IMG/VR virus record: IMGVR_UViG_3300020057_001232
Coordinates: 1 to 64,000 of that record
Strand: one strand, 5' to 3'
DNA: 64,000 bases
Source: a virus
This document shows, in pieces, positions 43,697-62,830 of the stretch. The notes under the pieces are model-generated. The model searched no databases. It saw only the letters and a list, made by a program, of their open reading frames with translations, and was not told the origin of the DNA. Each line of letters opens with the position of its first letter. Position 1 is the first letter of the stretch. The position numbers were made by a program, and so were the translations under genes.

Positions 43697-43719
43697 ACCC
43701 CGACCGACTCCATCTTGGA

Positions 43720-43750
43720 GCCCCGCTGTCACCAAGACAGCGGGGTTTTT
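43720..43750 (+). terminator. Terminator/attenuator between the Ubl and TROVE-like genes
   Basis: CCCCGCTGTC-ACCAA-GACAGCGGGG-TTTTT. Confidence 0.65.
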
Positions 43751-43783
43751 GTTATTAACGTTTGTTATCGGAGGTATACAGCC

Positions 43784-45415
43784 ATGACAGAACATAAGCT
43801 CGGCTACTTGAACGATCAAGACCGCCTAAAAATCTACAACACGCTTATCAGTGGTTGTATGCACCTTTGGAGTAAGAACAAACTTCAAGATGGTTCTACC
43901 ATTGATGTAAAAGGCAAAGACGGTAAGACGGTTAAGCAAAAGCTAGAAGACCGCCTTACACCTGTGCTCGAAAGCTTCTCGAAGCTTGCCGAGAGCGACC
44001 CTTTGTTTCTTGCCCACTTCACTAGCTATGCCGTGAAGAAGCTAGATGCGAAGGACTTACGTGTAGTTGCGACATTTGCTTCGACTCTTTCGGACGCAGA
44101 TGGGACGCCCTTTTCCCCTGGAAGCGAATTTAAGAAGCCCAACTGGCGTCTTATCGGGCAAGCAGCTTTCCAGACATTGGACCCTAAGCTTGCTCTACGT
44201 GTTGTGCAACTCGCAAACAGAAAAATGAAGTTCGGTATCAAAGCTGAAGCAACGCACTATTCTAAGTCGCTACGATCAGCAGTGAGGAAATACCTTCGTT
44301 ACCGTGAAGCAAACCCAAAGATGATCGAAGGAATTGTTCGGACAGGTCTCACGAAAACGTACCGTAACCTTTACCGTTGGGCTCGTATTCAGCCTTCGGC
44401 TGAAGCGGCTACGTTTCTTGCTTGGGAGCAGAAAGACGGCTCTGTGAAAGAGGCGGACTTTAAGCAGAACAAGCTTACGTTCGCAGGTTTGTCGGAAGTT
44501 GAAATTGCAGAGAAGATCCGTGCGGAGCGTTTGACGCCGCAGCGTGCTCTCGGTGCGCTCGGGGACAAGATCTCACCCGTTATCGCAGCAGCCGTTCTTG
44601 AGCAGGCTTCGGGCGACCAAGCCGTTATTTTGACAAACTTGTTTGAGGAGCAAGGTCTTCTTAAGAATGTGGAAGTGAAGAAGGTCTACGAAGAGAAGAT
44701 CAAGACGGCAAAAAACGCTTTGGACCGTGTGGATAGAATCAAAGCGGAGCTGTCTGAAGAAACTAAGACGGCGTTGAAGGACAGTAGAAGTGAGACAAGA
44801 AAGGCAAACATTGAAGACTTCGGTCGTGTGTTCGTCCACGTCGATACGTCGCCGTCGATGGCTAACGCTCTCGAAATTGCGAAAGAGTACGGAGCTACCA
44901 TTTCCGAGTTCGTTAAGAACCCAGAGCAGAACTTCTTTTGGGGCTCGTTTGACTCTGCGGGGAAGGTCTTCCCTAACCCACAAAAGTTTACGAAGGACGG
45001 CTTTAAGTTAGCTCTCTACGGGCAGAAAATTGGTGGCTACGGGACGGATTGTCTAGCTCTCTACAAGACAGCTCGTCAGAAAGGTTGTTCAGTTGACATC
45101 TACATCACGGACCAAGATCACAACGGCAAGCTTATCGGTATGACAATTGATGAATGCCGCAGAGAAGGTTTGACTGATCCGCAAGTCGCAGTGATCGTGG
45201 ACGTTCATGGTCGTCAAGACGGGATTCTAAAGCGTGAGCTAGAGAAGGCTGGTATTCCTGTTACCGTGCTTACGGCGAAAGAGCTTGGCGAAAGTGCGCT
45301 CGTAACGCAGGCGGTGAACGTAGCGATGAAGGGGCAGATCGCCGTCCTTGAAGAGATCCTCTCTACAGGGCTACTCGACTTGCCGAAGTGGTGGTACGCC
45401 GTTAAGAGTGCCTAA
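43784..45415 (+). CDS. TROVE/Ro60-like helical protein with C-terminal vWA domain
   Basis: LAESDPLFLAHF N-terminal motif; MIDAS VDTSPSM, GTDC and ITDQ. Confidence 0.6.
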   Translation: MTEHKLGYLNDQDRLKIYNTLISGCMHLWSKNKLQDGSTIDVKGKDGKTVKQKLEDRLTPVLESFSKLAESDPLFLAHFTSYAVKKLDAKDLRVVATFASTLSDADGTPFSPGSEFKKPNWRLIGQAAFQTLDPKLALRVVQLANRKMKFGIKAEATHYSKSLRSAVRKYLRYREANPKMIEGIVRTGLTKTYRNLYRWARIQPSAEAATFLAWEQKDGSVKEADFKQNKLTFAGLSEVEIAEKIRAERLTPQRALGALGDKISPVIAAAVLEQASGDQAVILTNLFEEQGLLKNVEVKKVYEEKIKTAKNALDRVDRIKAELSEETKTALKDSRSETRKANIEDFGRVFVHVDTSPSMANALEIAKEYGATISEFVKNPEQNFFWGSFDSAGKVFPNPQKFTKDGFKLALYGQKIGGYGTDCLALYKTARQKGCSVDIYITDQDHNGKLIGMTIDECRREGLTDPQVAVIVDVHGRQDGILKRELEKAGIPVTVLTAKELGESALVTQAVNVAMKGQIAVLEEILSTGLLDLPKWWYAVKSA

Positions 45416-45469: not shown

Positions 45470-46027
45470 TCACTCTTCGTGCGGTAAAAATGGGGATTCG
45501 TTTTTAAACCATTCTAAGGTTTCGCCATCTTCTTCATCTGACTCTTCTAGGGTGAATGCTTGAGAAAAGTCGATGCTCTCGTGCTCGGATAGTGAAGTCC
45601 ACCCATGCCCATCCCACACTTCTAAATTCCTCGCTGGAATACCCTTAGTGAGAAACCAAGCTTTACTGCCGCCTGCGTCTTTCGTTCCTAGCTCGTCCTC
45701 TTTTAGATCTTCTTTTTTAACTTTGGACGTACTCACGACAACGGGTACGTACAGATCTGTTAGGGGGTGGTCTGAGTTGTGGTTAGCGAAGTCTTCAGCT
45801 TTAGACATCCAAAAACGAACGCCATCAAAGTCTGTTAAAAACACTTTGCCTTTGGCGTGGAAGTCATAGCTAGGACTACCGATGGATCGGGTAGAGTTAG
45901 GCTTTAAGCCGTGCTGAGCAATGCTTTCAAGCCGGTTGGCGTAGGTGACGTGATACACCAAGATCTCGTCTTTTAGATCAGAAAGAACTTTGTACTTTCG
46001 GTAAACGTCTTTTGCTAAATTTCTCAT
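45470..46027 (-). CDS. ADP-ribosyltransferase-fold protein (Tpt1/KptA-like)
   Basis: YHVT...LESI...GLKP, VFLT and IP..NL motifs. Confidence 0.6.
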   Translation of the reverse strand: MRNLAKDVYRKYKVLSDLKDEILVYHVTYANRLESIAQHGLKPNSTRSIGSPSYDFHAKGKVFLTDFDGVRFWMSKAEDFANHNSDHPLTDLYVPVVVSTSKVKKEDLKEDELGTKDAGGSKAWFLTKGIPARNLEVWDGHGWTSLSEHESIDFSQAFTLEESDEEDGETLEWFKNESPFLPHEE

Positions 46028-46047
46028 GCAGAGAATCTTTTCTGACC

Positions 46048-46878
46048 TTAGCTCTTATCGTCAACCATGCGGACTTTATGGACAGTAGGTTTGTCTTTCG
46101 GACCTTTTGTGTGGTCCATAACCCACGTCCAGTTGGTGATGCAGTAAGTTCCTTCCCGGTCTTTGCCTAGCTTGTCGGTACCGATAGACCGCCAATGACC
46201 TCTGACCGAGAAGCGGTGGCTGAAGTCGATGGTGCGTCCTAAAGCTTCGTACTCTCGCACTTCGGACTTTGGGCAGACGTGGATAATGCGACGGACTGTG
46301 TGAAAGCGCTTGCCTTGACCAGTACCAATTTTGATCTTTTCCCTGACCTTCTCGACGCCATCACGTTCCCGCTCAAGACGCTTGAAGATGTTTTGAGTCA
46401 GAAGTCCGAACGTGTTCGTATTGATGACCATGATGGTCGGAGCGGAGTTCTCATGCACGATCTCCATTAAAGCATAGTAACAATACTTCTTCGGCTCGAT
46501 CTCCCATACCATCACACAGAGCGTGTTAGCGGGCGTTTCTCCAGGTCTAGCTACAGTGATTTTTCCGCCGAGAATTTCGTAAGAGAAGACGGGGAAAGGT
46601 GCGTCTATCTCAGGGTAAATCAAAGTGTTGCACTGCTCGCAGGTTGTACTTCCGTCTGCGTTGATGGTGGCAGTATGGGACTTGTGCGCTTCAGCCGTTT
46701 CTGGTAGCCATCGCGGCTCGTCGTGCTTAGGCGTAAAGACAAAAACTTCGCACCGCTCGACTTGTTTCCAGAAGTGCTCTTCTAATGTGTTCTGTCCTAA
46801 AGGCTTAGACTTCTCGCTGTCTACGTAGCGAACGCCTTGCTTCTTTACGACTTCGATCATTTGTTTGAAATATTTCAT
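46048..46878 (-). CDS. Conserved phage hypothetical protein
   Basis: C-terminal VRGHWR...WV..H.KGP motif. Confidence 0.6.
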   Translation of the reverse strand: MKYFKQMIEVVKKQGVRYVDSEKSKPLGQNTLEEHFWKQVERCEVFVFTPKHDEPRWLPETAEAHKSHTATINADGSTTCEQCNTLIYPEIDAPFPVFSYEILGGKITVARPGETPANTLCVMVWEIEPKKYCYYALMEIVHENSAPTIMVINTNTFGLLTQNIFKRLERERDGVEKVREKIKIGTGQGKRFHTVRRIIHVCPKSEVREYEALGRTIDFSHRFSVRGHWRSIGTDKLGKDREGTYCITNWTWVMDHTKGPKDKPTVHKVRMVDDKS

Positions 46879-46886
46879 AGCACTCC

Positions 46887-47339
46887 TCAGTCTTCGTAAT
46901 CGTCAAGGTTCCAATTCTGAGGCGGCGTCCAGCCATGCTCTTGCGCCGTTTTTGCCCACTGAGGGTAGACGGGCTTCTTGCCGAGAACGTGACGGATGCG
47001 GTTTTTAGAGTCTTCTGTTTCAGCCACCTCAACCAAATTCAGCTCGTTGATGAGGATCATGATGCTGTTGTGGGAATTACTCATGTAGCACCGACCGAGG
47101 GCGTCGATGGCGTACACTGTGGGAAGTTCCCACCCTATGTGTTTGAGTTCTCCGTGTGTACGTAAAGGCAACACAGGAACTTCGCTATCGTCGTTGACGG
47201 CAAATTCTAGGTCGGAGTCGTTTTGTACCGAAAACCTAAACTGGTTGCGAACGATGTCACCTTCAAGGTTTTCCGCCGTGTACCGGCGCATTGCCTTGAA
47301 TCCTTCTGGTGCTTTGTAGTGGGGGTCAAAAACAATCAT
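46887..47339 (-). CDS. Hypothetical protein
   Basis: AAGGAGG RBS, 150 aa. Confidence 0.5.
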   Translation of the reverse strand: MIVFDPHYKAPEGFKAMRRYTAENLEGDIVRNQFRFSVQNDSDLEFAVNDDSEVPVLPLRTHGELKHIGWELPTVYAIDALGRCYMSNSHNSIMILINELNLVEVAETEDSKNRIRHVLGKKPVYPQWAKTAQEHGWTPPQNWNLDDYED

Positions 47340-47340
47340 G

Positions 47341-47544
47341 TCAAACCTCCTTCACACTGTAAGCTTTGCACTTTTTGCACCGTATTGATTTCACTGTGGC
47401 GTCAGCCCTCAGACAACCCCACCAGCCGGAAGGTGTGCAGACAGGACGAAGTGCGCCGTCATGAAAAGTCAGCACATGCATCCGGTTAGTACGGATTGCC
47501 GTCCCTGCCGAGTCTTTGTGCTTACTGCCTAATACGAGCTTCAT
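47341..47544 (-). CDS. Small Cys-containing hypothetical protein
   Basis: H...C...CKKC pattern. Confidence 0.4.
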   Translation of the reverse strand: MKLVLGSKHKDSAGTAIRTNRMHVLTFHDGALRPVCTPSGWWGCLRADATVKSIRCKKCKAYSVKEV

Positions 47545-47598
47545 ATTGTCCCCTGTATCAAGCGAGACGAAGCAGGGCTTCGTCTCGCCGTCTGCTTC

Positions 47599-48552
47599 TT
47601 AGAGATTGTTGAAGGCATCGGTCAAGTTAAAGGTCGCCTTCTTGCCTGCCGTCACCAATGCTTTTTCCATAGCATTGAGGCGGTCTTCGAGTTCTGCCGT
47701 GCGACCGGACAAGTCCGCTTGATAAGCACGAACACGGGCACGGAGGTTTTTGGCTTCGACTTCACGGTTGTCGATTTTGGCTTTGCTGTCTTCGTTGTCG
47801 TGAAATTTTTTACGAGCACCTTTGTCCATTTTGATGACTTCTTGACGGAAGGTTTCGAGACGGCTGTTCATCTCTTCATAGACGGCATCTTGAACCGCTT
47901 CGTTCGTTGACGGTTCGTTGTAAGCGGGCACGGCATAGACTCGGCAAGTGTCGCCAGGCAAGATGTTGGCGATAGCTTCAAGCTTCTTAATTTGGTCCGT
48001 GTGGTGGTCAGGCACGTAATAGATACCGCTACCACTCTTGTAGGGAACGCCGAAGCATTCGGTGTCGATGACAGCCCGCAGCAGCGCTCCGATTTCGGCA
48101 CTGTCGGAGGTCTTCTGCATACGGCGGTAAGTGTCCAAGATGGAAGCGTTGAACGGTGATTCTGCGCCGAAGGTCACAACGCCGGAGCCTTTTTGCAGGG
48201 TGACGATCACTTCTTTGGTGATGTCATAGTCAGGCACGCCGTCCTGCTTTTCGTACACAGGAAGGATGACGGCGACGACCATGCGCTCTTTCACATCTTC
48301 GAGGCGGCGATAGAAACGCTCGCCTTCGTCTTTCTTAAGAACCTTACGGAGAGCCCGCAGCAAGCTTGCTTTGTAGTCGTTGCGCTTCATGAGGTCAACG
48401 AACGTGCGGGGCGTCTTCGAGTTCGTCTTCTGACCGGGTGCTTGGGCTTGTGCGAGTTTGCCGAGAGCTGCGAGGTGCTTCTCGACGGTGGCACGATCAA
48501 GCTCGGTGTTGCTTTTGATGGTCCAGTGGACGAGTTTGCCTTTGAGTTGCAT
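47599..48552 (-). CDS. Hypothetical protein co-transcribed with the AAA ATPase
   Basis: G.LV.W N-terminus, SG.G.YYVP motif, coiled-coil C-terminus. Confidence 0.6.
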   Translation of the reverse strand: MQLKGKLVHWTIKSNTELDRATVEKHLAALGKLAQAQAPGQKTNSKTPRTFVDLMKRNDYKASLLRALRKVLKKDEGERFYRRLEDVKERMVVAVILPVYEKQDGVPDYDITKEVIVTLQKGSGVVTFGAESPFNASILDTYRRMQKTSDSAEIGALLRAVIDTECFGVPYKSGSGIYYVPDHHTDQIKKLEAIANILPGDTCRVYAVPAYNEPSTNEAVQDAVYEEMNSRLETFRQEVIKMDKGARKKFHDNEDSKAKIDNREVEAKNLRARVRAYQADLSGRTAELEDRLNAMEKALVTAGKKATFNLTDAFNNL

Positions 48553-48576
48553 GATAGTCTCCTCAGTGTTTATAAA

Positions 48577-49611
48577 TTAAAATTCGATTTTTTCTTCTTC
48601 TTTGGTTTTGCCGAGCAGTACCCGCTCCAAGATGCCTTTGACGACGGCTTGGCTTTCTTCGTCGATCCGGCTCAGGAGAATGGAGTCAGCACTCGTCAGA
48701 AGGATGTCGTTGGTATCTTTCGCCGTCAAAGTGCCCTTCTTACGTTTGCTCCTATCGACGTGGCGAAGTAGCATTTGAACCCAATCCTCAAGCTGACGAA
48801 GACCCATTGGTTCAGGCAACTCTTGGCGGAAGAAGCCTTGACGGATGAGGTTTGCGACTTTGACCATCTCCTCTGCGAGCTGCGGCGTGGCTTTCATCCG
48901 TGGGTAACGCTCTGTCAACACGTTTTGCTCGGTGAGCGACGGCAAGTAATCGACGATGTAGATCCGAGCCCGTGTAAGCGTTGCGTAGTTCATCAACTGA
49001 GCACCGGGGTACAGGTGGCGGAAGCTGCTCATTGCACCGACCGTGTTGGCAGTGGCGATGATGCGGAAGTTTTCGTGGGCGACAAGATACTCGTGCCCTT
49101 TCTCTTTCAGCATGAGCTTACGGCGTGGCGAATGCGACTGAACAGGCTCCAAAACATCGTTGAAGGCTGCGAGGATACCGGGATTCACCATGTCGATTTC
49201 GTCGATGATGAGCCACCACCCCTCCCGCATAGCTTTAGGGAGAATGCCGTCCGTCCAAACGGTAGAGCCGTTCATGACAGTGTAACAACCAACAAGCTCG
49301 CTTACGGTCAACGTCTCACCGGCAGGGGCAGCGATGCAGGGTTGGTTGATCCTAGCAGCGATCTGCTTAGCGATGGAGGTCTTGCCCGTACCGGCGTGAC
49401 CGGAAAGGATAACGAAGCGGTCTTCTTTGATGTCAGAAGCAATGTCGAACGTCTTCGGGTGCCATTGGTAAGCAGGGTTGATAGAGGGGACGTTCAAAAG
49501 AGAGTCTCCCGTAGGAGCCCTAACCTCAAACGATACCTCTTCGATCTCGACGTGCATAGCCGGTGCCTGGGTCTCTGTCTTGCGTTGTACGTTGACTTTA
49601 CTTTGTGCCAT
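48577..49611 (-). CDS. MoxR-class AAA+ ATPase (CbbQ/NirQ/CobS-like)
   Basis: GHAGTGKT, W.DG.L..AMREG, IIDEID, FRIIATANT. Confidence 0.85.
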   Translation of the reverse strand: MAQSKVNVQRKTETQAPAMHVEIEEVSFEVRAPTGDSLLNVPSINPAYQWHPKTFDIASDIKEDRFVILSGHAGTGKTSIAKQIAARINQPCIAAPAGETLTVSELVGCYTVMNGSTVWTDGILPKAMREGWWLIIDEIDMVNPGILAAFNDVLEPVQSHSPRRKLMLKEKGHEYLVAHENFRIIATANTVGAMSSFRHLYPGAQLMNYATLTRARIYIVDYLPSLTEQNVLTERYPRMKATPQLAEEMVKVANLIRQGFFRQELPEPMGLRQLEDWVQMLLRHVDRSKRKKGTLTAKDTNDILLTSADSILLSRIDEESQAVVKGILERVLLGKTKEEEKIEF

Positions 49612-49637
49612 GTCGTTTCGCCCCCCTGTTACTCTTC

Positions 49638-49664
49638 TCTTCGGCATCCGGTGGCAAACCTTTA
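49638..49664 (-). promoter_or_regulatory. sigma28 (FliA)-type promoter
   Basis: TAAA-N15-GCCGAAGA. Confidence 0.55.
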
Positions 49665-49792
49665 GGAGGAAAATGCAAAGTACACAAGTGTTTTTATTTA
49701 AGTCCTTGAAAATCAAAGGGTTATAAGAAATAACTTTATTTATTTAAATATCTAGCCGATAAGACCCCTAGTCAGCAAGAAGGAGTCATTGA

Positions 49793-51688
49793 ATGCGTTT
49801 CTTCGAATCCAGCCTTGAGCGAATCGCCCGGATCATTACCCAACAGTACGGGGTTCAAATCCTGTTTGAGGGTTCGCAGGCGTATACGAACGGCAAGAAG
49901 ATCGTTTTGCCTGCCCTTCCTAAGGAAGGTGTTGACGCTGAGTTCGCCTCTGACATCCAAGGCTACCTCGATCACGAAGCTGCCCATTGCATCTTCAGTG
50001 ACTTCACGGTCATGCACAAAATCAAGTCGCAGTATCACCACTACCTCTCCAACCACTGCGAAGACGCCCGCATCGAAGTCCTCATGGTGAAGAAGTATTC
50101 CGGTTGCTCTTTGCACCTCGATCCCCTCAACGACAAGTGGAACAAAATCACTATCGCTAAGTGGGATACCTTAGACCGTCTAACCCGTGCCGCTCTCACC
50201 GTCCGTGCGATCATGGAAGGTCACTCGCCTACCATCGACGCCGACCTCTTGCCGCTTTTCACTTCCAAAGTCATGGTGCTCTCGAAGCTCTTGCGTAAGG
50301 CTGCCACTACGCTTCAAGTCATTAAGATCTGCGGTGCCATCATCAAAGAGTTCGACTCGCAAGTTGGTGAGCAAGAGAAGCAAAAGCAGGAAAAGAAAGA
50401 AGAGAAAAAGAAGCAAAAGCAGAAGCAAGAAGAAGGCAAAGGCGAAAAAAGCGAAAGCGGTAAAGGCAAATCCGAAGATCAAGACGGCAAAGCCGGTGAA
50501 GGTCAAGGCGAGAAAGACGACGGCGAAGGTAAAGACGACGACAAAAAAGACGGCGAAGCCGGTGGCGAAGGTAAACCTGAAGGTGAGTCGAAGGACGGCA
50601 AGGGTGAACAAGGCAAAGCTAGCGGAGTGTCTGCCGCAGAAGAGAAAGAGCTTCTCAACGAGTCCCCCGCACCTGCCAACAATGGTCAAGTGCAGTCCCG
50701 TGAAATGAATAAGTTCGAACCGTCGTCGGAAGCTACCGATATCCATTCGTTCATGGACAAAGAGATCAAAGAAAAAATCGAGGAGCAGAAACCAGCCGCT
50801 ACTCGTAGCTACGATTTTGAAAACGTGGCGCACGTACCAGCGTCTACGGCAGAAGATGTTTTGTACGACCGCACCAAAGACGGTCCAAAAGTTCGCCCAG
50901 AGTACCAAGCTCTTAAGCGTGAAATTAACAGCTCGATTACCAAAACCGTAATTGAGCTAGAGCGCATGTTGAAGGTCAAAGAGAACGCACGGACTGTGTT
51001 CGATCAAGAACGTGGGGCTTTAAATCGTGCTCGTCTCCATTCGCTTATTACTGACCCCAACTTCAGAAGACCGTTCACAGCGAAGACACGAGTCGAAACG
51101 ACCAACGTCTCCATCATGTTCCTTTGCGACGTTTCCGGCTCTATGCGTGAGGGGGATAAAATGGAAAGGTTGCGTGAGACCGTTGCCATTCTCGGCGAGT
51201 CCCTTAAGCAGCTCCGCATTGAATTTGAAGTCATCGGCTTCACCACCGGCACGACAACGAAGTTCCCGAGCTACGACGCTCGCTTAACTCGCCACGAGAG
51301 TCTTCAGCACTATCTCTACAAGTCGTTCGAGAGCGAAGATATGGCTCCGATCATCAACATGACGCCGATGGGTTGTAACTGCGACGGTGAAAGCCTGCGT
51401 TTCGCTGCCCGCCGTCTCTCGGAACGTCGGACTAAGCGTAAGATCATGTTTGTGCTCTCGGACGGGTTCCCTAATCCGTCATGCGGCGGTACCCGCATCA
51501 GAGCCGTTTGGAATGCCGACTTGAAAAAAGCCGTCGCTGAAGTCTCGAAGTTCGGAATAGAAGTGGTGGGCTTCGGCATCCTCACAGACGCCGTAAAGAA
51601 CTTTTACAAAGACTACGTGGTCATCCAAGATGTAACTTCGCTGCTTACCGCAGTGCGGACTAAACTTCGCAAAATCCTCACCGCCTAG
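49793..51688 (+). CDS. CobT-like protein (HExxH domain, charged linker, vWA)
   Basis: AYTNG, DHEAAH, EDARIE; G/K/E/D-rich linker; DVSGSM and LSDG. Confidence 0.8.
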   Translation: MRFFESSLERIARIITQQYGVQILFEGSQAYTNGKKIVLPALPKEGVDAEFASDIQGYLDHEAAHCIFSDFTVMHKIKSQYHHYLSNHCEDARIEVLMVKKYSGCSLHLDPLNDKWNKITIAKWDTLDRLTRAALTVRAIMEGHSPTIDADLLPLFTSKVMVLSKLLRKAATTLQVIKICGAIIKEFDSQVGEQEKQKQEKKEEKKKQKQKQEEGKGEKSESGKGKSEDQDGKAGEGQGEKDDGEGKDDDKKDGEAGGEGKPEGESKDGKGEQGKASGVSAAEEKELLNESPAPANNGQVQSREMNKFEPSSEATDIHSFMDKEIKEKIEEQKPAATRSYDFENVAHVPASTAEDVLYDRTKDGPKVRPEYQALKREINSSITKTVIELERMLKVKENARTVFDQERGALNRARLHSLITDPNFRRPFTAKTRVETTNVSIMFLCDVSGSMREGDKMERLRETVAILGESLKQLRIEFEVIGFTTGTTTKFPSYDARLTRHESLQHYLYKSFESEDMAPIINMTPMGCNCDGESLRFAARRLSERRTKRKIMFVLSDGFPNPSCGGTRIRAVWNADLKKAVAEVSKFGIEVVGFGILTDAVKNFYKDYVVIQDVTSLLTAVRTKLRKILTA

Positions 51689-51692
51689 GAGC

Positions 51693-51959
51693 TTGCGAAT
51701 GCGCCGATACCAAATTCAAATCGAGATCCACGATGAAAATGGGGATCTCGTCCGCATCGAGTATTCCAACTACTCGTCGAGCGACATTCTAACCGAGGAA
51801 GAAATCCTATCGCTGCACATTCCGATGGTCAAAGAAACCGTCGAGGTGCCAAAAAATGGTTACTTCCAGCTTGCGTTCGTCGAAGTCAAAGAAGTCTTCC
51901 GTGTTTACAAAGTTGGCAGAGATGGCTTTGAGGTTCATCCGGCTGAGGAATTTTCTTGA
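51693..51959 (+). CDS. Hypothetical protein
   Basis: ORF directly after the CobT-like gene. Confidence 0.45.
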   Translation: MRMRRYQIQIEIHDENGDLVRIEYSNYSSSDILTEEEILSLHIPMVKETVEVPKNGYFQLAFVEVKEVFRVYKVGRDGFEVHPAEEFS

Positions 51960-52442
51960 GCTTGCCTGCTTGCTTCGGCTTCATCGTACCGTGTCCGTCG
52001 ATCTCAGCCCAATCTCCGGTCTCATCGTTCACGACGAAGCCAGGGATTCTCATTTGTTCCATGTCATGCCAAATATGAGCACTATCTCGAAACGGCAGCT
52101 CTAGCTCGTTACGATTACGTTTGCCGTTGACCCTCGTCGATGACATAGGGACAAACTCAATATGTCCTAGAAAGTGCGTGTAGACGATCCCCATGTCGGC
52201 TACCATGTTGTAGTCACCCATTCCCCGCCAACGAATTTCCAGACGGGGCAAAGGAAGTCCGAGGTTCTCTTTCACGGTCAATGTGCGGAGGTGACGCCAC
52301 CTCTATTCGTCTCTGTAAGCGGCGTTTTCTTTTTCCGCTGCGAGTCGTGCGACTTCGTTTTCTAGCTCGTTGATTTTGTCGTTGAGCCGCTCTGTAACGG
52401 ATGCCATAAGCACCTCCTTTTGTTGGAGGTACAAAGCTACCA

Positions 52443-53189
52443 TCAACCACCAGTGCGGTCAAAGACTGGATAGTTGCCGATGTCGTCGCCGAAGAAAGCT
52501 TGCGGCTGCGACGGGGTTTGACTAAGCCGTCCCTCTTTATCTTCTATGCACGTCTTAACGGAAGCGTAAACATCCCGCCAAGTCGCCACAGGCGTAGCTA
52601 AGGTCTCCACCAAACACGTATCCCAATAGGTGTAGACTTCTTCCGAGCCGCACCCAAAGGATGTTCTGTCTTTCGAGGCAGCAGTCAAAATTATTCTGTT
52701 TGGTTTACGCATGAGCGGTTCAGAGAAAATTCCCGAGTAGCAAGCTGAAATAAGAACGACGGTGGGTCTAGTGCCGCACGTTGCGTCAAGAATGGATGCA
52801 TAGGTCGAAGGGTTCAAACCCGTCTGACCTCTGATGTAGAACTCGCTGCGAGAGCCGTGGGAAGTAATGAAAGCAAAACAGGCGTCCCACGCTCCTAAGT
52901 TGAGATCGGTGAATGCCTGCCTGAAGTTTGCGACAGAGGTTGCCCGCACACCGTTGGTCTGTTGGCTGCTCGACCTCGAAAGCTGCAAGACGTTTTCAGG
53001 TGCAAGACCATCTGCACCCAACAACTCGGCGACTTTCTTTCTTGCATTGTCGAAAGCATTAATGGAGTCGTCGCCTGTCATAAGGACGGCTTTCCAGTTA
53101 AAAAAGCCTCGACTCTCTTGTAAATTGCTAGGATCTGATTGTGCTCCACAGCCTGTCAAAAATAGTAACGCAACGAGCACAACTTTCAT
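52443..53189 (-). CDS. Peptidase C13-like lipoprotein (caspase-hemoglobinase fold)
   Basis: TSHG, ISACYSG and DRTSFGC motifs; lipobox LTGC. Confidence 0.8.
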   Translation of the reverse strand: MKVVLVALLFLTGCGAQSDPSNLQESRGFFNWKAVLMTGDDSINAFDNARKKVAELLGADGLAPENVLQLSRSSSQQTNGVRATSVANFRQAFTDLNLGAWDACFAFITSHGSRSEFYIRGQTGLNPSTYASILDATCGTRPTVVLISACYSGIFSEPLMRKPNRIILTAASKDRTSFGCGSEEVYTYWDTCLVETLATPVATWRDVYASVKTCIEDKEGRLSQTPSQPQAFFGDDIGNYPVFDRTGG

Positions 53190-53191
53190 AA

Positions 53192-53851
53192 CTACTCCCT
53201 ATAAGGGTTCTGTGGGCAGATAGTGATAAGAAGATCTGAACTAAGGATACCATGTTCTTTGTTGCCGACGAAGTAACAGGGGACATCTAGTTTAAAACCC
53301 TTACCAGTGAACATAAGAACTAGACGGTTGATAAATGCGAAGAGTGTGTAGCGCCATCCAGGTATAATATTCTTAAGCAGAGACGGCTCGATGATGGTGA
53401 TGCCGCATTCTTTATAGACCTGCATCGTGGACTCGGTGCAGTAGAGCCGACTAGGGTCTGAGTAGTTGAAGTCGTAGTCTTCATCCAACTCTAAATACTC
53501 TTCGATTTTGTTATGGAGCTTTGTTTCGATCTCAGGCGTGAGATCTTTGTAGCGGAGAACCATGAACTTTTCGTACTGACAAAAGTCTAACCAGTCGATC
53601 ATACGATAAAGAAGCGAACCACGATCATTGATTTCAAAGACGAAGATCTCGTCGCCTTTCATGATTACCATGGCGGCGTGTGAGTATTCACTTTTGCTAA
53701 GTCTAGATACAATCGTACTGAACGGGATGCCGAAGGGACCGTCTGTGTAGCTCTCCCGGACGAGGATGTCCCCTGACTTAAGTCCTAGTTCTTTTAGAAA
53801 GGAAACGATCTTTTTTCTGTTTTTTACTTCCCAAGTTCTTACGGCACTCAT
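53192..53851 (-). CDS. Permuted papain-like NlpC/P60 (YiiX/YaeF) protein
   Basis: GDIL, YSHA, YD.....LYCTE. Confidence 0.75.
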   Translation of the reverse strand: MSAVRTWEVKNRKKIVSFLKELGLKSGDILVRESYTDGPFGIPFSTIVSRLSKSEYSHAAMVIMKGDEIFVFEINDRGSLLYRMIDWLDFCQYEKFMVLRYKDLTPEIETKLHNKIEEYLELDEDYDFNYSDPSRLYCTESTMQVYKECGITIIEPSLLKNIIPGWRYTLFAFINRLVLMFTGKGFKLDVPCYFVGNKEHGILSSDLLITICPQNPYRE

Positions 53852-54117
53852 ATAGCGAAACCCTCGTTTGTTTCTCATTGAAACTAAAGCGAGGGTTTTT
53901 GCAGGGAGTGGGACTAAATCACCGCTGCGGCTTTAACGAGCTGGCTAAGAAGCTTGCCGTCTTCGGTCTTCATAAACCCACCTCCCCAACTGGCGGAATG
54001 ACCGACGCAGATAATGCGGTAGGTCTTTCGATTGCCGTTCCAATCACTTACAGGAGTTTTTTCCGCTGAGGAAGACAATTCGGCTTGACGTAGGCTTCTT
54101 TTTTTGGTCTCATAGAC

Positions 54118-54255
54118 GTGAGGTGGTCCCCTCAGCTTACGTTTACAAGCAAAAGTAGCTCACTTGGTAGAGCAAGACTCGTTCAAAGTTTAGGTAATCG
54201 GTTCAACTCCGATCTATTGCAACAATATAAAACGTAGACAACTTGGACCACCTAC
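54118..54255 (+). ncRNA. Y-RNA-like structured RNA enclosing a tRNA-like domain
   Basis: AGGTGGTCC/GGACCACCT and TACGTTT/AAACGTA outer helices around a cloverleaf; TTGACG upstream; terminator downstream. Confidence 0.5.
54149..54221 (+). tRNA. Atypical tRNA-like cloverleaf (TTC at the anticodon position)
   Basis: GCAAAAG/CTATTGC acceptor with an A-A mismatch; GCTC/GAGC D arm; ATCGG-TTCAACT-CCGAT T arm; G33; no CCA. Confidence 0.6.
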
Positions 54256-54261
54256 TCTCAT

Positions 54262-54287
54262 AACCCGCACGAGCGGGTTTTTCTTTT
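54262..54287 (+). terminator. Intrinsic terminator
   Basis: AACCCGC-ACGA-GCGGGTTTTTCTTTT. Confidence 0.65.
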
Positions 54288-54296
54288 GGTGAAAGC

Positions 54297-55157
54297 ATGT
54301 TGAATTTTACAGCACTAGCCAAACCCGTAAGAGTCGTTGTCCCGATTCTCAACCGCTCTTTTACTTACAACAAGAAGCTTTACAAAATAGGTGTAGACGA
54401 TGGCTGGTGGCAGGTGGAGCTTCAAGGCAATAAAGCGACGGCTATTGAAACACATCTATGGACCGACCCCCCTCGGAATGCTTTACGGGGGGTTAGTTAC
54501 GGCACGAGAGTTGTTTTTTCACATTTTGAAGTGGCTCGCCGCAAATATTCGCTGGACGTTATAGCCCCTCTTGAATTTCCTAATGTTGAAACTTTCGCAA
54601 GTATTTTCGTCATGGTGTGGGAAGATAACCGCACCTACTACGTGATGCCTTGCTACGCAGACTTCAAGACGGTCTACATCAAAGATCTCCTTGACGACAA
54701 TTTAACCCTTGAAAACGTGAAAGAGATAACTCCCGAGCTGCGGACAGTGTTTCTTTTTCATGCACTTGAACGCATCGAGATTCGCAAAAAGCTCGAAGAG
54801 CTTGAGAAGATCAAACATGAAGAGGAAATGAAACAGACCGTAGAAGGTCGCCTTCGGTTTGCCTTTGATCGCTCTGGAGCTACGATCACTGAGTATCACG
54901 TAGGCAATGGTCGCATTGAGGTGACATGGAGCGTTCCGGGAGCAGGCAGTTTCAACTCTGTCCTCGATGACAAAACCTTTATGGTCCTCGAAGCGGGCTA
55001 CTGTATGTCAGGAGATGACCGTCGTCACAACGTCACAAGTATGGTAAAGACGGCGGAAGACTACCACGCACGCCGTCTCGTCCATAGAACTCGTGGTCGC
55101 ACGTTCGACCGCACCTTAGACCCTCACGAGGAACGTGATTATGACTACGACGATTAA
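54297..55157 (+). CDS. Hypothetical protein heading the JAB-E1 operon
   Basis: C-terminal VLEAGYCMSGDD with a candidate conserved Cys; coupled to the JAB gene. Confidence 0.6.
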   Translation: MLNFTALAKPVRVVVPILNRSFTYNKKLYKIGVDDGWWQVELQGNKATAIETHLWTDPPRNALRGVSYGTRVVFSHFEVARRKYSLDVIAPLEFPNVETFASIFVMVWEDNRTYYVMPCYADFKTVYIKDLLDDNLTLENVKEITPELRTVFLFHALERIEIRKKLEELEKIKHEEEMKQTVEGRLRFAFDRSGATITEYHVGNGRIEVTWSVPGAGSFNSVLDDKTFMVLEAGYCMSGDDRRHNVTSMVKTAEDYHARRLVHRTRGRTFDRTLDPHEERDYDYDD

Positions 55158-55632
55158 TGATATGCCGACTTTTCACCGAGAGAGCAGCCTCGTCACGTAC
55201 TCTTCTCTGCCGCAAATTCTGCGGAAGAAGGTGTCGCTAAGCTTAGGCACGCCGGGAACCGTAGAGTTCGACTTCTTAGAAGTGTGGGAGTTCTTCAAAA
55301 AAGTGAAGACGCACGACGACTACGAGTTCTCCAATTGGCAGTTTTTCCACGTCCACCCTCCCGGACTTAACTGTGCGTCGGGGCTTGATATCGAATGTGC
55401 TAAGGGTCTAGCTTTAGCTTTCGGTCACCCGCTCTACTTCAGCATTGTGACCTTTGGAGCCAACGCCGAAGAACGCACGGTAACAAGCTTCGTCGCTTCG
55501 CCAAGCGGGCTAGAGCAGCTCTCTCCTACGAGTAACATCAATTACTTGAAGGCTTCTTATTTAAGCAAGTCAGAAGCCGAAGATCTATATTGGATGAGTT
55601 ACACAAGCGGGGAAGATTTGTGTCAGAAATAA
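55141..55632 (+). CDS. JAB/MPN metalloprotease (deubiquitinase-like)
   Basis: JAMM motif HVHP......S..D. Confidence 0.7.
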   Translation: MTTTINDMPTFHRESSLVTYSSLPQILRKKVSLSLGTPGTVEFDFLEVWEFFKKVKTHDDYEFSNWQFFHVHPPGLNCASGLDIECAKGLALAFGHPLYFSIVTFGANAEERTVTSFVASPSGLEQLSPTSNINYLKASYLSKSEAEDLYWMSYTSGEDLCQK

Positions 55633-56207
55633 ACAAAGTTACAGTGCTTGGTCTAGGAGCAATCGGTAGCAATCTTCTTCTACAGTTAGCTAAAACACTT
55701 CCAGATTTGCAGTATGTCGGCATCGACTACGACAAAGTGGAAGTGCGTAACATTGGTCCGCAAGCTTACATGACGGAACACGTAAATGCACCTAAGGCAA
55801 AAGCTTTAGCAGCAGTTATTGCAAGATATGCAAGACGTGCTCGCTACCAAGCTGTAGATAAGAAACTTACTGAAGTCTACAAGCCGGAACCGAACGAACT
55901 CGTCCTTGATTGCTTTGACAACACAGCTTCTAGAAAGCTGACAACCGTCGAAGGTCATGTGCTCCATGTCGGCTTTTCCCCTTTCTATTCGGCGGAAGCT
56001 ATATGGTCGCCGCACTTTGAGCCAGCGGGGGATGTTCCCGCTGATGCTCCCGACATCTGTACGATGGCTGGTGCTACACCCTTCATCCACTTCGTTGTAA
56101 ACGCGGCAGCTTTACTTGTCGTAAATTTTGTCTTGAACGGAATCAAGAGAGACCTTATAGTGATCGGATCAATCCAAAACGGTTTTAACTTGAGGTATCT
56201 ATCTTGA
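55620..56207 (+). CDS. ThiF/E1-family adenylyltransferase
   Basis: GLGAIGS, DYDKVEVRN..Q, K..A, DCFDN..SR, candidate catalytic Cys in DICT. Confidence 0.85.
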   Translation: MSEINKVTVLGLGAIGSNLLLQLAKTLPDLQYVGIDYDKVEVRNIGPQAYMTEHVNAPKAKALAAVIARYARRARYQAVDKKLTEVYKPEPNELVLDCFDNTASRKLTTVEGHVLHVGFSPFYSAEAIWSPHFEPAGDVPADAPDICTMAGATPFIHFVVNAAALLVVNFVLNGIKRDLIVIGSIQNGFNLRYLS

Positions 56208-56608
56208 CGACATATTGGTCGGATGTTGACAGGTTCAACGAAATTTACAAGCTACCTAGACCTGTCAAACCGACTAATCCAGCGAACGACCGTTTGGACT
56301 TCTTTAAGCAAATTCTTTTAGAAGAAGTCGAAGAAGTTGAAGCGATCAAGGCTAAAACCGATCCTCTTGAGCGGTTGACAGATCTTGGCGATTGGCTTGC
56401 GGACATCATCGTCTACTGCTCAACGGAGGCTCGCCGCCATGGTCTCCCCATTGAAAAGATCCTCGATGTAATAATGCAGTCGAATTTTTCCAAGCTCGGT
56501 GCAGATGGGAAAACGATCTACGACGAGCGAGGTAAGGTTCTCAAGGGACCTAACTACTGGAAACCAGAACCGTCTATCCAAAAACTTATAGAGAAGGAGT
56601 TGGCATGA
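56204..56608 (+). CDS. MazG-like (PRA-PH) NTP pyrophosphohydrolase
   Basis: EEVEE, D.LAD.IVY, SNFSKL...GKVLKGPNY. Confidence 0.82.
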   Translation: MTTYWSDVDRFNEIYKLPRPVKPTNPANDRLDFFKQILLEEVEEVEAIKAKTDPLERLTDLGDWLADIIVYCSTEARRHGLPIEKILDVIMQSNFSKLGADGKTIYDERGKVLKGPNYWKPEPSIQKLIEKELA

Positions 56609-60259: not shown

Positions 60260-60377
60260 GTATTGATCTTTTAGACGCCGCATTGACCCTAGATCAATGC
60301 GGCGTTTAACTTTAATCCTCTTTGAGGTAAGCTGTCCCCTTCAGAAACCCAGCGAAGCGGTAAAAAAGGTTCAAGAC

Positions 60378-61373
60378 ATGAGAGAAAAGATCTTTCAAGC
60401 CGTCATCGGCTCACATCTTTATGGAACAAGCCGTCCGCAGAGTGACGAAGACTTTTTAGGAGTTTACTTGCCTACGGCGGAAGATCTTTGTTCGATGCAG
60501 AGCCCTCCCGGTGAAATCAGCGAGAACGTCAAACTGACCGAAGGGCGACGTAATTCTGCGGGTGATGTTGACAGCAAATTCTTCAGTGTCAAACGCTTCT
60601 TCGAGCTAGCTCTGCAAGGTCAAACAACTGCTATCGAGCTGTTCTTTGTCCCTGACGAATTAGTAACGATCAAGACACCTCTTTGGGACGAGATCAAAGC
60701 GCACCGCAGTCTCTTCTTGTCGAAACAAAGCGTAGCTCCGTTTGTGGGCTTTTGCCGTTCGCAAGCGGGCAAAGCTACGCTTAAAGGTCAGAACTTAAAG
60801 CAGCTCCAAAAGCTGATAAAGGCTCTTGAAGCGTTGACCGAGAACGACAAGAAAAGAAAGATCATGAGCTTTGTCGATATGGACGACGTTTCGGCGGCAG
60901 AAGCACTAGGGGAGGGAGCCATGCTTTTTGGTATGGAGTTCCCGGTCTTCTTAGATCAGAACGGCATCTTCCATTTGGTCGTCTGCAACAACCGTAAACT
61001 CACCATAAACAACACGGCGGAATCGTGGCTGACGACAGCTCGTATTCTAGAAGAACGCTACGGCACAAGGGTTCGGACGGCGGCTGACACCCACTACGAT
61101 TACAAGTCGCTTTACCATGCGTTTAGAATCGCTGGCGAAGCTGAAGAGCTTTTGGTCGAGGGGCGCTTGAGCTTGCCGAGACCACAGCAGGAGTTGGAGT
61201 TTTTAATGGCGCTACGTGCGGAGACTTTTGCCCCCGACTACATGGAGCAGTTAGAAGCCTGTATTGCCAAAGTCGAAGCACTCAAAAGCAAAAGCTCTTT
61301 GCCTGATAAGCCTGACTACGACGCCGTTGGAAAACTCTGCATTGACTTACACCGTAAACTTTTTAACGCTTGA
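60378..61373 (+). CDS. Pol-beta superfamily nucleotidyltransferase (RlaP/YcgL-like)
   Basis: GSHLYG.....SDED..GVY; YD.K..YHA.R. Confidence 0.8.
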   Translation: MREKIFQAVIGSHLYGTSRPQSDEDFLGVYLPTAEDLCSMQSPPGEISENVKLTEGRRNSAGDVDSKFFSVKRFFELALQGQTTAIELFFVPDELVTIKTPLWDEIKAHRSLFLSKQSVAPFVGFCRSQAGKATLKGQNLKQLQKLIKALEALTENDKKRKIMSFVDMDDVSAAEALGEGAMLFGMEFPVFLDQNGIFHLVVCNNRKLTINNTAESWLTTARILEERYGTRVRTAADTHYDYKSLYHAFRIAGEAEELLVEGRLSLPRPQQELEFLMALRAETFAPDYMEQLEACIAKVEALKSKSSLPDKPDYDAVGKLCIDLHRKLFNA

Positions 61374-61382: not shown

Positions 61383-61961
61383 ATGACTATAGCCGATGCT
61401 GTGTTTGACCCAAACGTAAGACCTAAGCTCCGCTGTGAAGAGACTTGGAAACATGTAGCTAAGATCCTAGCTCCTAAAGTTTCGGAGTGGGCAGGTGAAG
61501 AAGTTCTAGAAGGTGAAAGCTTCGAAGACGAAATATTTCAAATTTTAGACGACGCCTTCAGCTTAGATGGTTTCAAGCTTGCCAAAGAGTTCGATGACCT
61601 CGGCTATGAAGCCGACTTAGATCTTGTAGAAATTTTAAACGAAGTAGAATACCTCGCCATGAATTTTAAGGCGAAGCAGGAACAGGCGTGGGTAGTTCAC
61701 TTCGGAGCCAAAGCCAAACTGCTAGTCGGAGCCGTTGTCAAAGTTAAGCATAGACACGACGACCAAGTGGGCACCATCGTTGAGATCGACAAAAAGCGGG
61801 GATACTACACCGTACAAATAGACGCTTTAGGGCACGGTGTTCAAAAAGTAGGCAGCCGAACGGTTGGCTGCAATTACGCTTTTGAAGAAGTGGAGAAGTG
61901 GAATGCAGAGCTACAAAATGGAGATACCGTTTCTAGCACAAAGCCCGGAGCAAGCCCATGA
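61383..61961 (+). CDS. Hypothetical protein
   Basis: 192-aa ORF with GAGG RBS. Confidence 0.55.
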   Translation: MTIADAVFDPNVRPKLRCEETWKHVAKILAPKVSEWAGEEVLEGESFEDEIFQILDDAFSLDGFKLAKEFDDLGYEADLDLVEILNEVEYLAMNFKAKQEQAWVVHFGAKAKLLVGAVVKVKHRHDDQVGTIVEIDKKRGYYTVQIDALGHGVQKVGSRTVGCNYAFEEVEKWNAELQNGDTVSSTKPGASP

Positions 61962-62082: not shown

Positions 62083-62376
62083 TTAGTTGCGTAGAGAGCG
62101 CTCGACAATCTTATAGCTCTCCGCTAACTCAAGCGACTCTTCGGTGACATCAGGATAAGTCCAAAGCTTCTGCTTCTCAAGATATGTGAAGTAGGGGTGC
62201 TCGTCTTCGATATATTTTTTAGCATCGTCGTAATCAATGAAAACTTCTTCTACGTCGGAAAAGCCGTAGGGGAGGTCTTTTACTACGATGTAAACTGTGT
62301 CGATTCTCAAGTTGTCTTTAGTGTATTCTTTAGCTGCACTTCCCAATCTACCACCCAATCCTTTCGTAACAGACAA
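62083..62376 (-). CDS. Hypothetical protein
   Basis: ORF downstream of DHFR; start uncertain. Confidence 0.4.
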   Translation of the reverse strand: MSVTKGLGGRLGSAAKEYTKDNLRIDTVYIVVKDLPYGFSDVEEVFIDYDDAKKYIEDEHPYFTYLEKQKLWTYPDVTEESLELAESYKIVERSLRN

Positions 62377-62830
62377 CTCGGTAATCTAGACCGGCGTCTT
62401 CCCCTTGTTCAATTACTGTCTGGTGCCATTTCTTTTCATCTACCACAGGAAAGAATGTATCACCAGCAAAGCTTTGCTCGACATGCGTCAAAGTCATAGA
62501 ACCGGCGACATCTAAAGCTTCCTTGTAGAGACCTTCGCCACCAATTACGAAACAGTCGAAGGCACATAACTTCAAGGCGTCGTAGAAGCTAGAAGCTGTC
62601 TCGACGCCATCAACTAAACCTTGCTTAGACGTAACTACAATATTTCTACGATTGGGTAGTGGTCTGCCGATAGACTCGAAAGTCATACGACCCATGACAA
62701 CGGTGGAACCCTTAGTCAGCTCTTTAAAGCGTTTGAGGTCTTTAGGCATGTACCATGGAAGCTTTCCAGCAATGCCGATGGCACGGTTGCTGGCAACCGC
62801 AGCTACAATTTTAATTGGGAGGTGAAGCAT
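62348..62830 (-). CDS. folA: Dihydrofolate reductase
   Basis: IG..GKLPW..P.DL.RFK..T, MGR.TFESIGRPLPNRRN, IGG, GDTFFP. Confidence 0.93.
   Translation of the reverse strand: MLHLPIKIVAAVASNRAIGIAGKLPWYMPKDLKRFKELTKGSTVVMGRMTFESIGRPLPNRRNIVVTSKQGLVDGVETASSFYDALKLCAFDCFVIGGEGLYKEALDVAGSMTLTHVEQSFAGDTFFPVVDEKKWHQTVIEQGEDAGLDYRVVCYERIGW

Follow-up and report, generated by a model that had tools for sequence, protein, structure and literature searches.

The virus record IMGVR_UViG_3300020057_001232 of IMG/VR raises the question of why a tRNA-like cloverleaf should be set inside a longer stem, directly ahead of genes resembling those of a ubiquitin-like pathway. The stretch analysed (positions 1 to 64,000 of the record, referred to below as the window) is part of a 118-kb provirus record. 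An initial annotation of its letters had proposed that this RNA is a tRNA mimic of the Y-RNA kind, that it is the partner of a protein encoded at 43784-45415 and that it leads an operon for a JAB peptidase and an E1-like enzyme. Our reading is that the 133-nt element at 54121-54253 (+) encodes a small non-coding RNA, one of a Y-RNA-like family found in large phages, and that this RNA is the partner of a divergent Ro60-like protein; we place the probability of this reading at roughly 0.7.

A tRNA-like body within a covarying frame

The cloverleaf at 54149-54221 (+) was called tRNA-Glu (uuc) by ARAGORN and matched the Rfam tRNA model with 51.4 bits (gathering score 29, E=4.1e-8), which was the outcome of the tRNA part of an Infernal check suggested earlier and the sole gathering-level Rfam match in the window. 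The departures from an ordinary tRNA that the initial annotation had listed were each found in place. The anticodon loop reads CGUUCAA (C32 G33 U34 U35 C36 A37 A38), so the G33 is real; pair 5-68 of the 7-bp acceptor stem is an A·A mismatch (marked 'v' in the cmscan alignment); and the 3' end is a discriminator A followed by ACA, so that CCA is not encoded. The T loop is canonical and G18 and G19 are present, and positions 15/48 are C/A and form no Levitt pair. ARAGORN also called a tRNA-Pyl (cta) at 3115-3185 (+) of the window, which is probably false and was supported neither at the Rfam gathering level nor by the tRNA part of the covariance model R1 described below.

Two outer helices extend the acceptor end, as had been described. 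The outer helix P1 is a perfect 9-bp pairing of AGGUGGUCC (54121-54129) with GGACCACCU (54245-54253) and the inner helix P2 is an 8-bp pairing of UUACGUUU (54137-54144) with AAACGUAG (54230-54237), all on the + strand. They are separated in the window copy by a 7x7 internal loop with CCUCAGC (54130-54136, +) on the 5' side and ACAACUU (54238-54244, +) on the 3' side, where the family norm, judged by folding the duplexes of 27 copies, is a 4-nt C[C/A]NN opposite ACUU. The motif ACAAGC (54145-54150, +) follows P2, and its final GC forms part of acceptor pairs 1 and 2. The minimum free energy of the 146-nt stretch that was folded was -36.7 kcal/mol compared with -28.55 +/- 3.2 for shuffled sequences (z = -2.55; 1 of 200 shuffles was as good).

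Relatives of the element were collected by means of the gene that follows it. The 286-aa protein encoded at 54297-55157 (+), which belongs to no known family, matched 26 proteins (the window's own included) that were 36-46% identical, and their alignment drew 40 loci from genomes, viral contigs and metagenomes (numbered here with the prefix L), all 40 with a homologue of this protein. As a single query the protein retrieved nothing from viral contigs, whereas the alignment-based scans succeeded; a blastn search of plasmids with 53900-56300 gave no match. The covariance model R1 was built from a MAFFT alignment (A3) of seven unpermuted copies, and a cmsearch with it gave 33 matches over 37 sources, 28 of which cover the whole model. 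After removal of one false frame and two duplicates (L036 being identical to L024) this leaves 25 distinct framed copies, and one further copy is cut by a contig end. Ordinary tRNAs of the same records align to R1 positions 30-105 only, showing that they are without the frame, and no family of Rfam 15 captured the frame in scans of the window and of the relatives' loci.

Several candidates were discarded in this process. The false frame (L034:333-467) proved to be a true tRNA-Ala gene that encodes CCA and has AT-rich flanks matching by chance, and a candidate at L043:7845 resembles coding sequence. Pattern scans of IMG/VR viral contigs yielded seven stretches, of which the matches in L045, L047, L049 and L051 were put down to chance or to tRNA clusters, with no frame in the duplex scan and no Ro60-like gene in the records. 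The duplex scan is of limited sensitivity, as it missed real copies in L050 and L048 that were recognised by eye. In L034 the usual place of the RNA just 5' of the 286-aa gene is taken by genuine, frameless tRNA-Ala and tRNA-Lys genes with CCA (362-437 and 691-766).

When the 5' and 3' segments of the frame were folded as duplexes, 26 of the 27 tabulated copies gave a common layout, consisting of the outer stem, the internal loop (C[C/A]NN on the 5' side and ACUU on the 3' side), a second stem of 8-11 bp, a near-invariant ACAAGC, the tRNA-like body and the return strands. ACUU is the exact 3' loop in thirteen of the 27 copies, while in nine more the loop has additional bases and ends in ACUU or CUU. 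ACAAGC is identical in all seven aligned unpermuted copies and also occurs in permuted ones, the variants being ACATGC in L016:2160 and ACACGC in L028:7886. The conserved elements are therefore the 3' ACUU, the 5' C[C/A]NN and ACAAGC, with the sequence of P1 free to covary. The likeness to a conserved Y RNA helix to which the initial annotation had drawn attention is a resemblance of GGUCC/UUGGACC in P1 to the Ro-binding site of metazoan Y RNAs, and thus falls outside the conserved part.

Support for the two helices came from fitted and unfitted alignments. In the alignment fitted to R1, 95.0% of the cells pair compared with 58.1% when shuffled and 31-44% when slid, and both-sided changes are present in 9/9 P1 pairs and 9/9 P2 pairs. 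RNAalifold applied to the unfitted MAFFT alignment of the seven unpermuted copies recovered P1, P2 and all four tRNA arms, with compensatory changes in 31 of 38 pairs. Cognate 5'/3' frame duplexes had a mean energy of -24.3 kcal/mol (n=27) against -8.0 +/- 3.5 kcal/mol for 702 non-cognate pairings, and none of the 702 reached the -23.0 kcal/mol of the window frame. The absence of the outer helices from homologues had been named in advance as an outcome that would count against the proposal; they are present, and are the most conserved structural feature of the family. That the RNA is a Y-RNA-like tRNA mimic and not an ordinary tRNA gene is likewise borne out by the framed relatives.

The tRNA-like bodies held by the frame vary widely. 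The anticodons of unpermuted copies are UUC in the window, CAG in L007, UAG in L016, ACG in L009, and GUC and UAU in L026, and the unpermuted copy L028:7558 has a 6-nt 'anticodon' loop. The anticodon arms have 5-bp stems and mostly 7-nt loops with these differing triplets, G33 recurs in the loop CGAUUAA of L024, and CCA is encoded after the discriminator in two relatives (L028:7558 and L026:750). Bacterial tRNA-Leu is of class II and has a long variable arm; the bodies with 'Leu' anticodons (L007 and L016) are without one and are therefore not real tRNA-Leu. Many copies are permuted, including copies in L004, L021, L024, L026, L028 and L044; their bodies begin with the T arm, continue with an acceptor-like stem that a loop closes and then the D arm, and usually end with an anticodon-like arm, while L003:3136, L003:3480 and L031 hold partial bodies that have no anticodon arm. 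Tandem copies were found in L026 (8), L003 (at least 4) and L028 (at least 4), with spacers of ~20-30 nt that imply co-transcription and processing. The variety of well-kept anticodon arms suggests that the mimicry of particular tRNAs matters, in which case a role as decoy or sensor would be an addition to the Y-RNA-like reading and not a rival to it.

The record contains a second framed copy outside the window at L044:7601-7745 (-), which corresponds to G000:C1:111601-111745. This copy is permuted, carries a CAU anticodon arm, has a perfect TTGACA upstream and is called a 99-nt tRNA-Met by ARAGORN; no Ro60-like gene lies nearby.

A TTGACG and a terminator had been reported on either side of the window RNA and both are present. 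The hexamer TTGACG (54085-54090, +), a possible -35 element, lies about 30 nt before P1 and is taken as a lead only; a sigma-70 scan of 53700-54500 called no promoter. The intrinsic terminator at 54262-54287 (+), which was called by a terminator scan, consists of a 7-bp GC-rich hairpin (54262-54279) with a T run and ends 10 nt 5' of the ATG at 54297. Terminator-like hairpins could also be read in the sequence after the RNA in L024/L036 and L005. The position of the terminator and of TTGACG suggests a discrete transcript of ~135-165 nt.

Two further features of the sequence were noted. A string ACGT(T)AGGCTT occurs shortly 5' of P1 in both copies of the record (window 54092-54097; L044:7761-7756, -), in the L044 copy 17 nt after TTGACA, and may be a shared promoter element. 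The AAG of ACAAGC (54145-54150) is complementary to the CUU of ACUU (54241-54245), so that a tertiary or alternative pairing is possible. Such a pairing is beyond the reach of covariation as both motifs are invariant, and L035 has ACUC without a matching change.

A Ro60-like protein in the same neighbourhood

The protein to which the RNA had been tied is encoded at 43784-45415 (+; open reading frame 43715-45415, likely start 43784) and consists of helical repeats and a vWA domain with a DxSxS MIDAS motif, which is also visible in the homologue alignment. By its predicted architecture and by distant homology it is Ro60-like, outside Pfam TROVE. A profile of eight homologues searched against the PDB gave human RO60 as the sole match at E<=1 (E=3.1e-6). 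In a Foldseek search with the AlphaFold model, rows 1-12 were all Ro60 proteins (phage phiLo, human, Xenopus and Deinococcus; E 4.6e-8 to 3.7e-5), with phiLo Ro60 as the top match. In the VIA comparison the vWA domain alone gave a Z of 12.5, and Ro60 chains were the only ones aligned over 350-361 residues, that is over the helical part and the vWA domain together (Z 11.8-12.1). The Pfam family vWA_Ro60 was matched by one of the eight aligned homologues at E 0.11 and by 8 of 32 representatives at E<=0.001, of which one exceeded the cut-off. With the single window protein as query, Pfam and NCBIfam gave only noise and a phmmer search of the PDB gave only matches at E=0.45, to the phiLo TROVE protein. 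Homologues were present in 16 of the 40 loci at 43-57% identity, and 424 relatives at E<=0.001 were found among 1.84 billion representatives.

The genes of the RNA and of the Ro60-like protein are neighbours in the relatives. Framed copies lie within ~2 kb of the Ro60-like gene in nine of the nine distinct loci with the relevant flank covered, downstream of the gene in L003, L007, L009, L016, L028 and L036 and upstream of it in L004, L026 and L035. In L004 the RNA sits between the gene for a small protein discussed below and the Ro60-like gene. Four loci (L006, L022, L023 and L025), in which the Ro60-like gene is at a contig end and its upstream side is beyond the contig, were left out of this count. 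An independent case came from the motif scan of IMG/VR, which turned up G001, a 59-kb virus record with a Ro60-like gene (E=7e-205) that is preceded at 0.7-1.3 kb by three copies and followed at 2.4 kb by a 286-aa gene. The proposed tie between the RNA and the protein at 43784-45415 thus gains a conserved gene neighbourhood and a protein that is probably a divergent Ro60, and the RNA would be the partner of this protein by the same reasoning.

Comparison with known Y RNAs

According to two studies, Y RNAs are encoded beside Ro60 in bacteria and phages and mimic tRNA (PMC4201824; PMC12135203). In the first of these (Chen 2014), YrlA is defined by the order T arm, acceptor-like stem-loop and D arm and by the Ro-binding motif GNCGAAN0-1G / CGAA, whereas Yrn1 of Deinococcus radiodurans has the unpermuted order of D, anticodon-like and T features within a Ro-binding stem made of both strands (PMC4201824). 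The same study reports that in vivo the YrlA of M. smegmatis is cleaved by RNase P and acquires CCA, and that tandem tRNAs can imitate the T and D arms of YrlA (PMC4201824). Its supplement has 355 putative YrlAs, some from phages and some with longer acceptor stems, and from this description could include RNAs of the present kind (PMC4201824).

The present family shares with YrlA of Salmonella, Mycobacterium and mycobacteriophages a terminal stem with a protein-binding internal loop (putatively so here) joined to a tRNA-like domain, an often close location to a Ro60 gene and the presence of several copies per locus. YrlA is further known as a ligand of Ro60/Rsr, which stabilises it, and as a target of modification by TruB/DusA. 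The permuted relatives of the window copy have the same order of T arm, closed acceptor and D arm and give sub-threshold matches to the YrlA model. Five permuted copies scored 26.9-33.9 bits (E 0.001-0.11), three of the five over the whole model, and one reached E=9.6e-5 in a small search. The Rfam consensus of YrlA has AcUuG before the 3' strand of the terminal stem, and ACUU plus G stands at the same place in this family. Unlike YrlA, the family has the extra helix P2 and ACAAGC and is without GNCGAAN0-1G/CGAA. The window copy itself is unpermuted (acceptor, D, anticodon, T), with a full anticodon arm and a 7-bp acceptor, and in the permuted copies the frame enters at the position of the variable loop, whereas that of YrlA replaces the anticodon stem.

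Compared by description with Yrn1, the window copy is alike in its unpermuted order inside a stem that binds Ro in Yrn1 and putatively does so here, and the relative L028:7558 in its 6-nt 'anticodon' loop; Yrn1 is described as having only partial D features and no V arm, whereas the cloverleaf of the window RNA is complete and includes an acceptor stem. Yrl1 and Yrl2 of Thermus phage phiLo (PDB 9L5Y and 9KOP; PMC12135203) likewise combine a phage Ro60 with adjoining Y-RNA-like genes and a stem-bulge-stem arrangement. The phiLo RNAs were chosen by the CGAA motif, 'tRNA-like' is absent from the main text of that paper and the portion available mentions no ubiquitin-like cassette (PMC12135203). 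The metazoan Y RNA helix GGUCCGA/UUGAC has no conserved equivalent here: the window copy does contain GGUCC, but P1 covaries freely in the family and only the 3' CUUG is shared; no match to Y_RNA (RF00019) at E<=1 was found in nine loci. The window RNA resembles ordinary phage tRNAs in scoring above the Rfam tRNA threshold, and the genomes in which such elements lie also carry tRNA clusters, but it differs from them in its G33, its acceptor mismatch, its missing CCA and its covarying two-helix frame. The family appears to be undescribed in the literature searched, save for what the 2014 supplement may hold.

A number of results weigh against the Y-RNA-like reading. Concerning the protein, the TM scores of the Ro60 rows in Foldseek were only 0.23-0.34 with a model of pLDDT 63, the Ro60 alignments in VIA had a root-mean-square deviation of 8.6-9.5 A over two domains, and Pfam TROVE had no match at the thresholds used in the window protein, in seven aligned homologues or in 32 representatives; the assignment to Ro60 rests on a mediocre model and one profile match. 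The model is too coarse to show whether the protein closes into a ring like that of Ro60, which holds Y RNA on its rim and RNA ends in its hole. Concerning the RNA, the window copy had no match at E<=10 to Rfam YrlA (RF02553) or Y_RNA (RF00019) in 53900-54450, so this half of the suggested Infernal check came out negative, and the published Ro-binding motifs (GGUCCGA; GNCGAAN0-1G/CGAA) are absent from it, including the GNCGAA of YrlA. The YrlA scores of the permuted copies are far under the gathering score of 69 and depend largely on the T and D arms. The sequencing runs matching the stretch were five DNA runs from microbial-mat metagenomes, with no RNA run listed.

Distance is also unfavourable in several cases. 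Between the Ro60-like gene and the window copy there are 8.7 kb, and the second copy of the record is ~66 kb away. The phage G006 is complete at 253 kb and has terminal repeats; its second array (L048:2600-9500) lies ~75 kb from its Ro60 locus, among ordinary tRNAs and with no Ro60-like gene within the 10.6 kb examined. Of the 19 loci in which 1.5 kb or more is covered ahead of the 286-aa gene, six had no Ro60-like gene in the covered stretch. The ~4-kb distance to a Ro60 orthologue used in Chen 2014 compares with 8.7 kb for the window copy and ~2 kb or less for the nine related loci and G001. Adjacency to Ro60 is therefore frequent and not obligatory, and the mixing of the G006 array with ordinary tRNA genes indicates that framed mimics are part of jumbo-phage tRNA regions.

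The putative ubiquitin-like cassette and alternative readings

A comparison of 21 window proteins (41-62 kb) with the related loci showed that, besides the Ro60-like protein, the 286-aa protein, a JAB/JAMM peptidase and an E1-like protein were the only ones with homologues there. The 165-aa peptidase (55135-55632, +) carries HVHPPGLNCASGLD, an exact fit to the JAMM motif HxHx7Sx2D. It had no Pfam match, and homologues were found in 21 of the 40 loci. The E1-like ThiF adenylyltransferase (55590-56207, +) matched Pfam ThiF at 8.1e-12, matched ThiF and PRTRC_ThiF of NCBIfam below their cut-offs and had homologues in 18 of the 40 loci. Ahead of the Ro60-like gene is that of a small 95-aa protein ending ...IPNSTAG (43409-43696, +), a presumed ubiquitin-like modifier whose homologues all end in AG. 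Its gene closely precedes that of the Ro60-like protein in L007, L004 and L050, and it is fused in frame to the N-terminus of the Ro60-like protein in L036 (293-2125) and L009/L010 (L010:1459-3270), a fusion seen in four of the 150 listed Ro60-like representatives. The arrangement is reminiscent of ubiquitin made as a fusion precursor, and the JAB peptidase would be the enzyme that processes it.

In relatives the order is contiguous and runs small AG-ended protein, Ro60-like gene, RNA, 286-aa gene, JAB and E1. The two halves of the cassette, which the initial annotation had supposed to be linked by the RNA, are therefore one module that is split in the window by an 8.7-kb block (45470-53878). 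The block has no counterpart in any related locus and looks like an insertion. It holds a CobS/MoxR-like AAA+ gene (48577-49716, -), a CobT-like vWA gene (49793-51688, +), a weak DUF6744 match, a C13 caspase-like peptidase, a YiiX-like C92 peptidase and genes for proteins of no recognised kind. A tblastn search of the rest of the 118-kb record gave no second Ro60-like, 286-aa, JAB or E1 gene.

The AlphaFold (AF2) model of the 286-aa protein has a pLDDT of 87, and the invariant residues include Cys236 and His244. The model consists of two OB-like barrels, a long helix and a C-terminal domain with the invariant Cys236. VIA aligned residues 9-122 with OB-like barrels (Z 6.0-6.6) and residues 181-261 with the RWD/E2-like central domain of FANCL (Z 5.7-5.9). 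All of these are below Z 8, the level taken as reliable, and Foldseek gave no match at E<=0.001, so the fold names OB and E2/RWD-like are tentative.

Cassettes with a Ubl, an E1 and a JAB peptidase include PRTRC, CBASS Cap2/Cap3 and Bil. The present cassette is like these in its ThiF E1, its JAMM peptidase and a small protein with a small residue plus Gly at its end, and it gave weak NCBIfam matches to PRTRC_ThiF and 6A-MBL cap2_3. The literature searched contained no description of a cassette of this kind that is linked with Ro60 and Y-like RNAs; an Asgard-virus preprint lists Ro60 and E1-like genes in one archaeal virus without linking them to each other.

Other genes of the record were also noted. 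At 60297-61373 of the window, 6 kb downstream of the RNA, is a nucleotidyltransferase of the RlaP family (RNA repair pathway), and the next gene (61383-61961) has a weak match to a MutS2/Smr-associated SH3 domain. A 1075-aa open reading frame with a LAGLIDADG domain, probably containing an intein, lies at L042:1054-4281 (-), which is G000:C1:65054-68281. Near it are DHFR (window 62348-62830), SprT-like and caspase-like genes, a set typical of large phages.

Among other explanations, the framed RNAs might be a panel of tRNA decoys or baits directed against host defences that target tRNA, such as anticodon nucleases, with the frame as a shield from exonucleases and Ro60 dispensable or a stabiliser only. 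The anticodon arms are indeed kept while their triplets differ (UUC, CAG, UAG, ACG, GUC, UAU, and CAU in L044), arrays reach eight copies and some lie among phage tRNA genes, the G33 of the window and of L024 would spoil decoding and not shape, and the RlaP-family gene for RNA repair lies 6 kb downstream. The copies without any anticodon arm (L003:3136, L003:3480 and L031) do not fit such a panel, the scanned parts of the window yielded no anticodon nuclease, RNA ligase or kinase/phosphatase, and the invariant ACAAGC and ACUU and the tie to the Ro60-like gene are left without an explanation. We consider this explanation unlikely on its own, and it is compatible with the Y-RNA-like reading and does not exclude it.

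It has also to be considered that the RNA is a substrate or cofactor of E1 chemistry, in which the AG-ended protein and the E1 form a sulfur relay that thiolates the RNA, or that the OB protein of 286 aa is its true partner. The Ubl/E1 pairs TtuB/TtuC and Urm1/Uba4 feed tRNA thiolation, UUC is among the s2U34 anticodons, the E1 gene is within 1.4 kb of the RNA and the gene for the AG-ended protein within 11 kb, and the OB-like barrels predicted for the 286-aa protein resemble RNA-binding OB/S1 domains (Z about 6). Against these stand the anticodons, which vary among relatives, and the fold matches of the 286-aa protein, which are all below Z 8. In addition, Pfam and NCBIfam scans of the window proteins found no thiouridine synthetase (PP-loop), and a JAB peptidase, like an AG-ended protein fused to Ro60, is more in keeping with the processing or conjugation of proteins. 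Thiolation or binding of this kind therefore appears very unlikely.

That the RNA is a working tRNA-Glu is harder still to credit. P1 and P2 would then be a processing stem from which RNase P and 3' trimming free a 73-nt tRNA that is given CCA and charged, a route for which M. smegmatis YrlA is a precedent according to Chen 2014 (PMC4201824). The 51.4 bits, the 7-bp acceptor, the canonical T loop with G18 G19 and the CCA encoded in L028:7558 and L026:750 would all agree with it. The features of the body and of its relatives do not. U33 is near-universal in tRNAs and is replaced here by G33, A5·A68 is a mismatch and a Levitt pair is missing at 15/48 (C/A); the 'Leu' relatives are without the class II variable arm, and the permuted relatives would need circularisation to yield a tRNA. 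Conservation of the frame motifs does not depend on the body, and the genuine tRNAs of the same record are frameless. It is just as improbable that RNA and terminator act in cis as a leader or attenuator controlling read-through into the 286-aa/JAB/E1 operon: they stand directly 5' of the 286-aa gene in the window, L005, L007, L008, L016 and L024/L036, with the scan-called terminator 10 nt before the start codon, but copies are upstream of the Ro60-like gene instead in L004, L026, L035 and G001, on the other strand and 2-4 kb from the 286-aa gene in L028, and also in arrays and at distant sites, so that leading the JAB-E1 operon is not general, and the fold showed no alternative anti-terminator pairing.

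Under the Y-RNA-like reading, P1, the C[C/A]NN/ACUU internal loop and P2 would be the docking site for the phage Ro60-like protein, while the tRNA shape of the other module would recruit or occupy a tRNA-binding factor; both roles are suggested by analogy, because Y RNAs tether Ro60 to other proteins. The resulting ribonucleoprotein may act with the neighbouring AG-ended protein, the 286-aa protein, JAB and E1, and the likely task of the cassette is the processing or conjugation of the small protein, whose gene precedes that of Ro60 or is fused to it. A bolder version, which we regard as doubtful, is an RNA-scaffolded ubiquitin-like system in which a Ro60 produced together with its AG-ended modifier, or as a fusion with it, is loaded with a panel of mimics of different isoacceptors, the tRNA-like module of the mimic docks the OB/E2-like 286-aa protein, and the RNA directs conjugation or deconjugation by E1 and JAB, the whole serving to intercept or sense host defences that attack tRNA. 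In its boldest form the adenylated C-terminal Gly would be transferred to the 3' end of the mimic.

For annotation, these results imply that calls of 'tRNA-Glu', 'tRNA-Leu' or 'tRNA-???' in such phages may be Y-like RNAs. The family provides natural variation for the question of what the tRNA-like half of bacterial Y RNAs is for, since a single conserved frame, probably for docking, holds tRNA bodies that are whole, permuted or partial and differ in their anticodon arms, and arrays contain as many as eight copies. It is accompanied by a probable Ro60 clade that Pfam misses and that is coupled to an AG-protein/E1/JAB cassette, with the small protein fused to Ro60 in some phages. The RNAs and proteins described here would therefore offer material for three questions, namely how Ro60 may recognise RNA free of the CGAA motif, what tRNA mimicry does for a phage and whether a Ro ribonucleoprotein can be under ubiquitin-like control.

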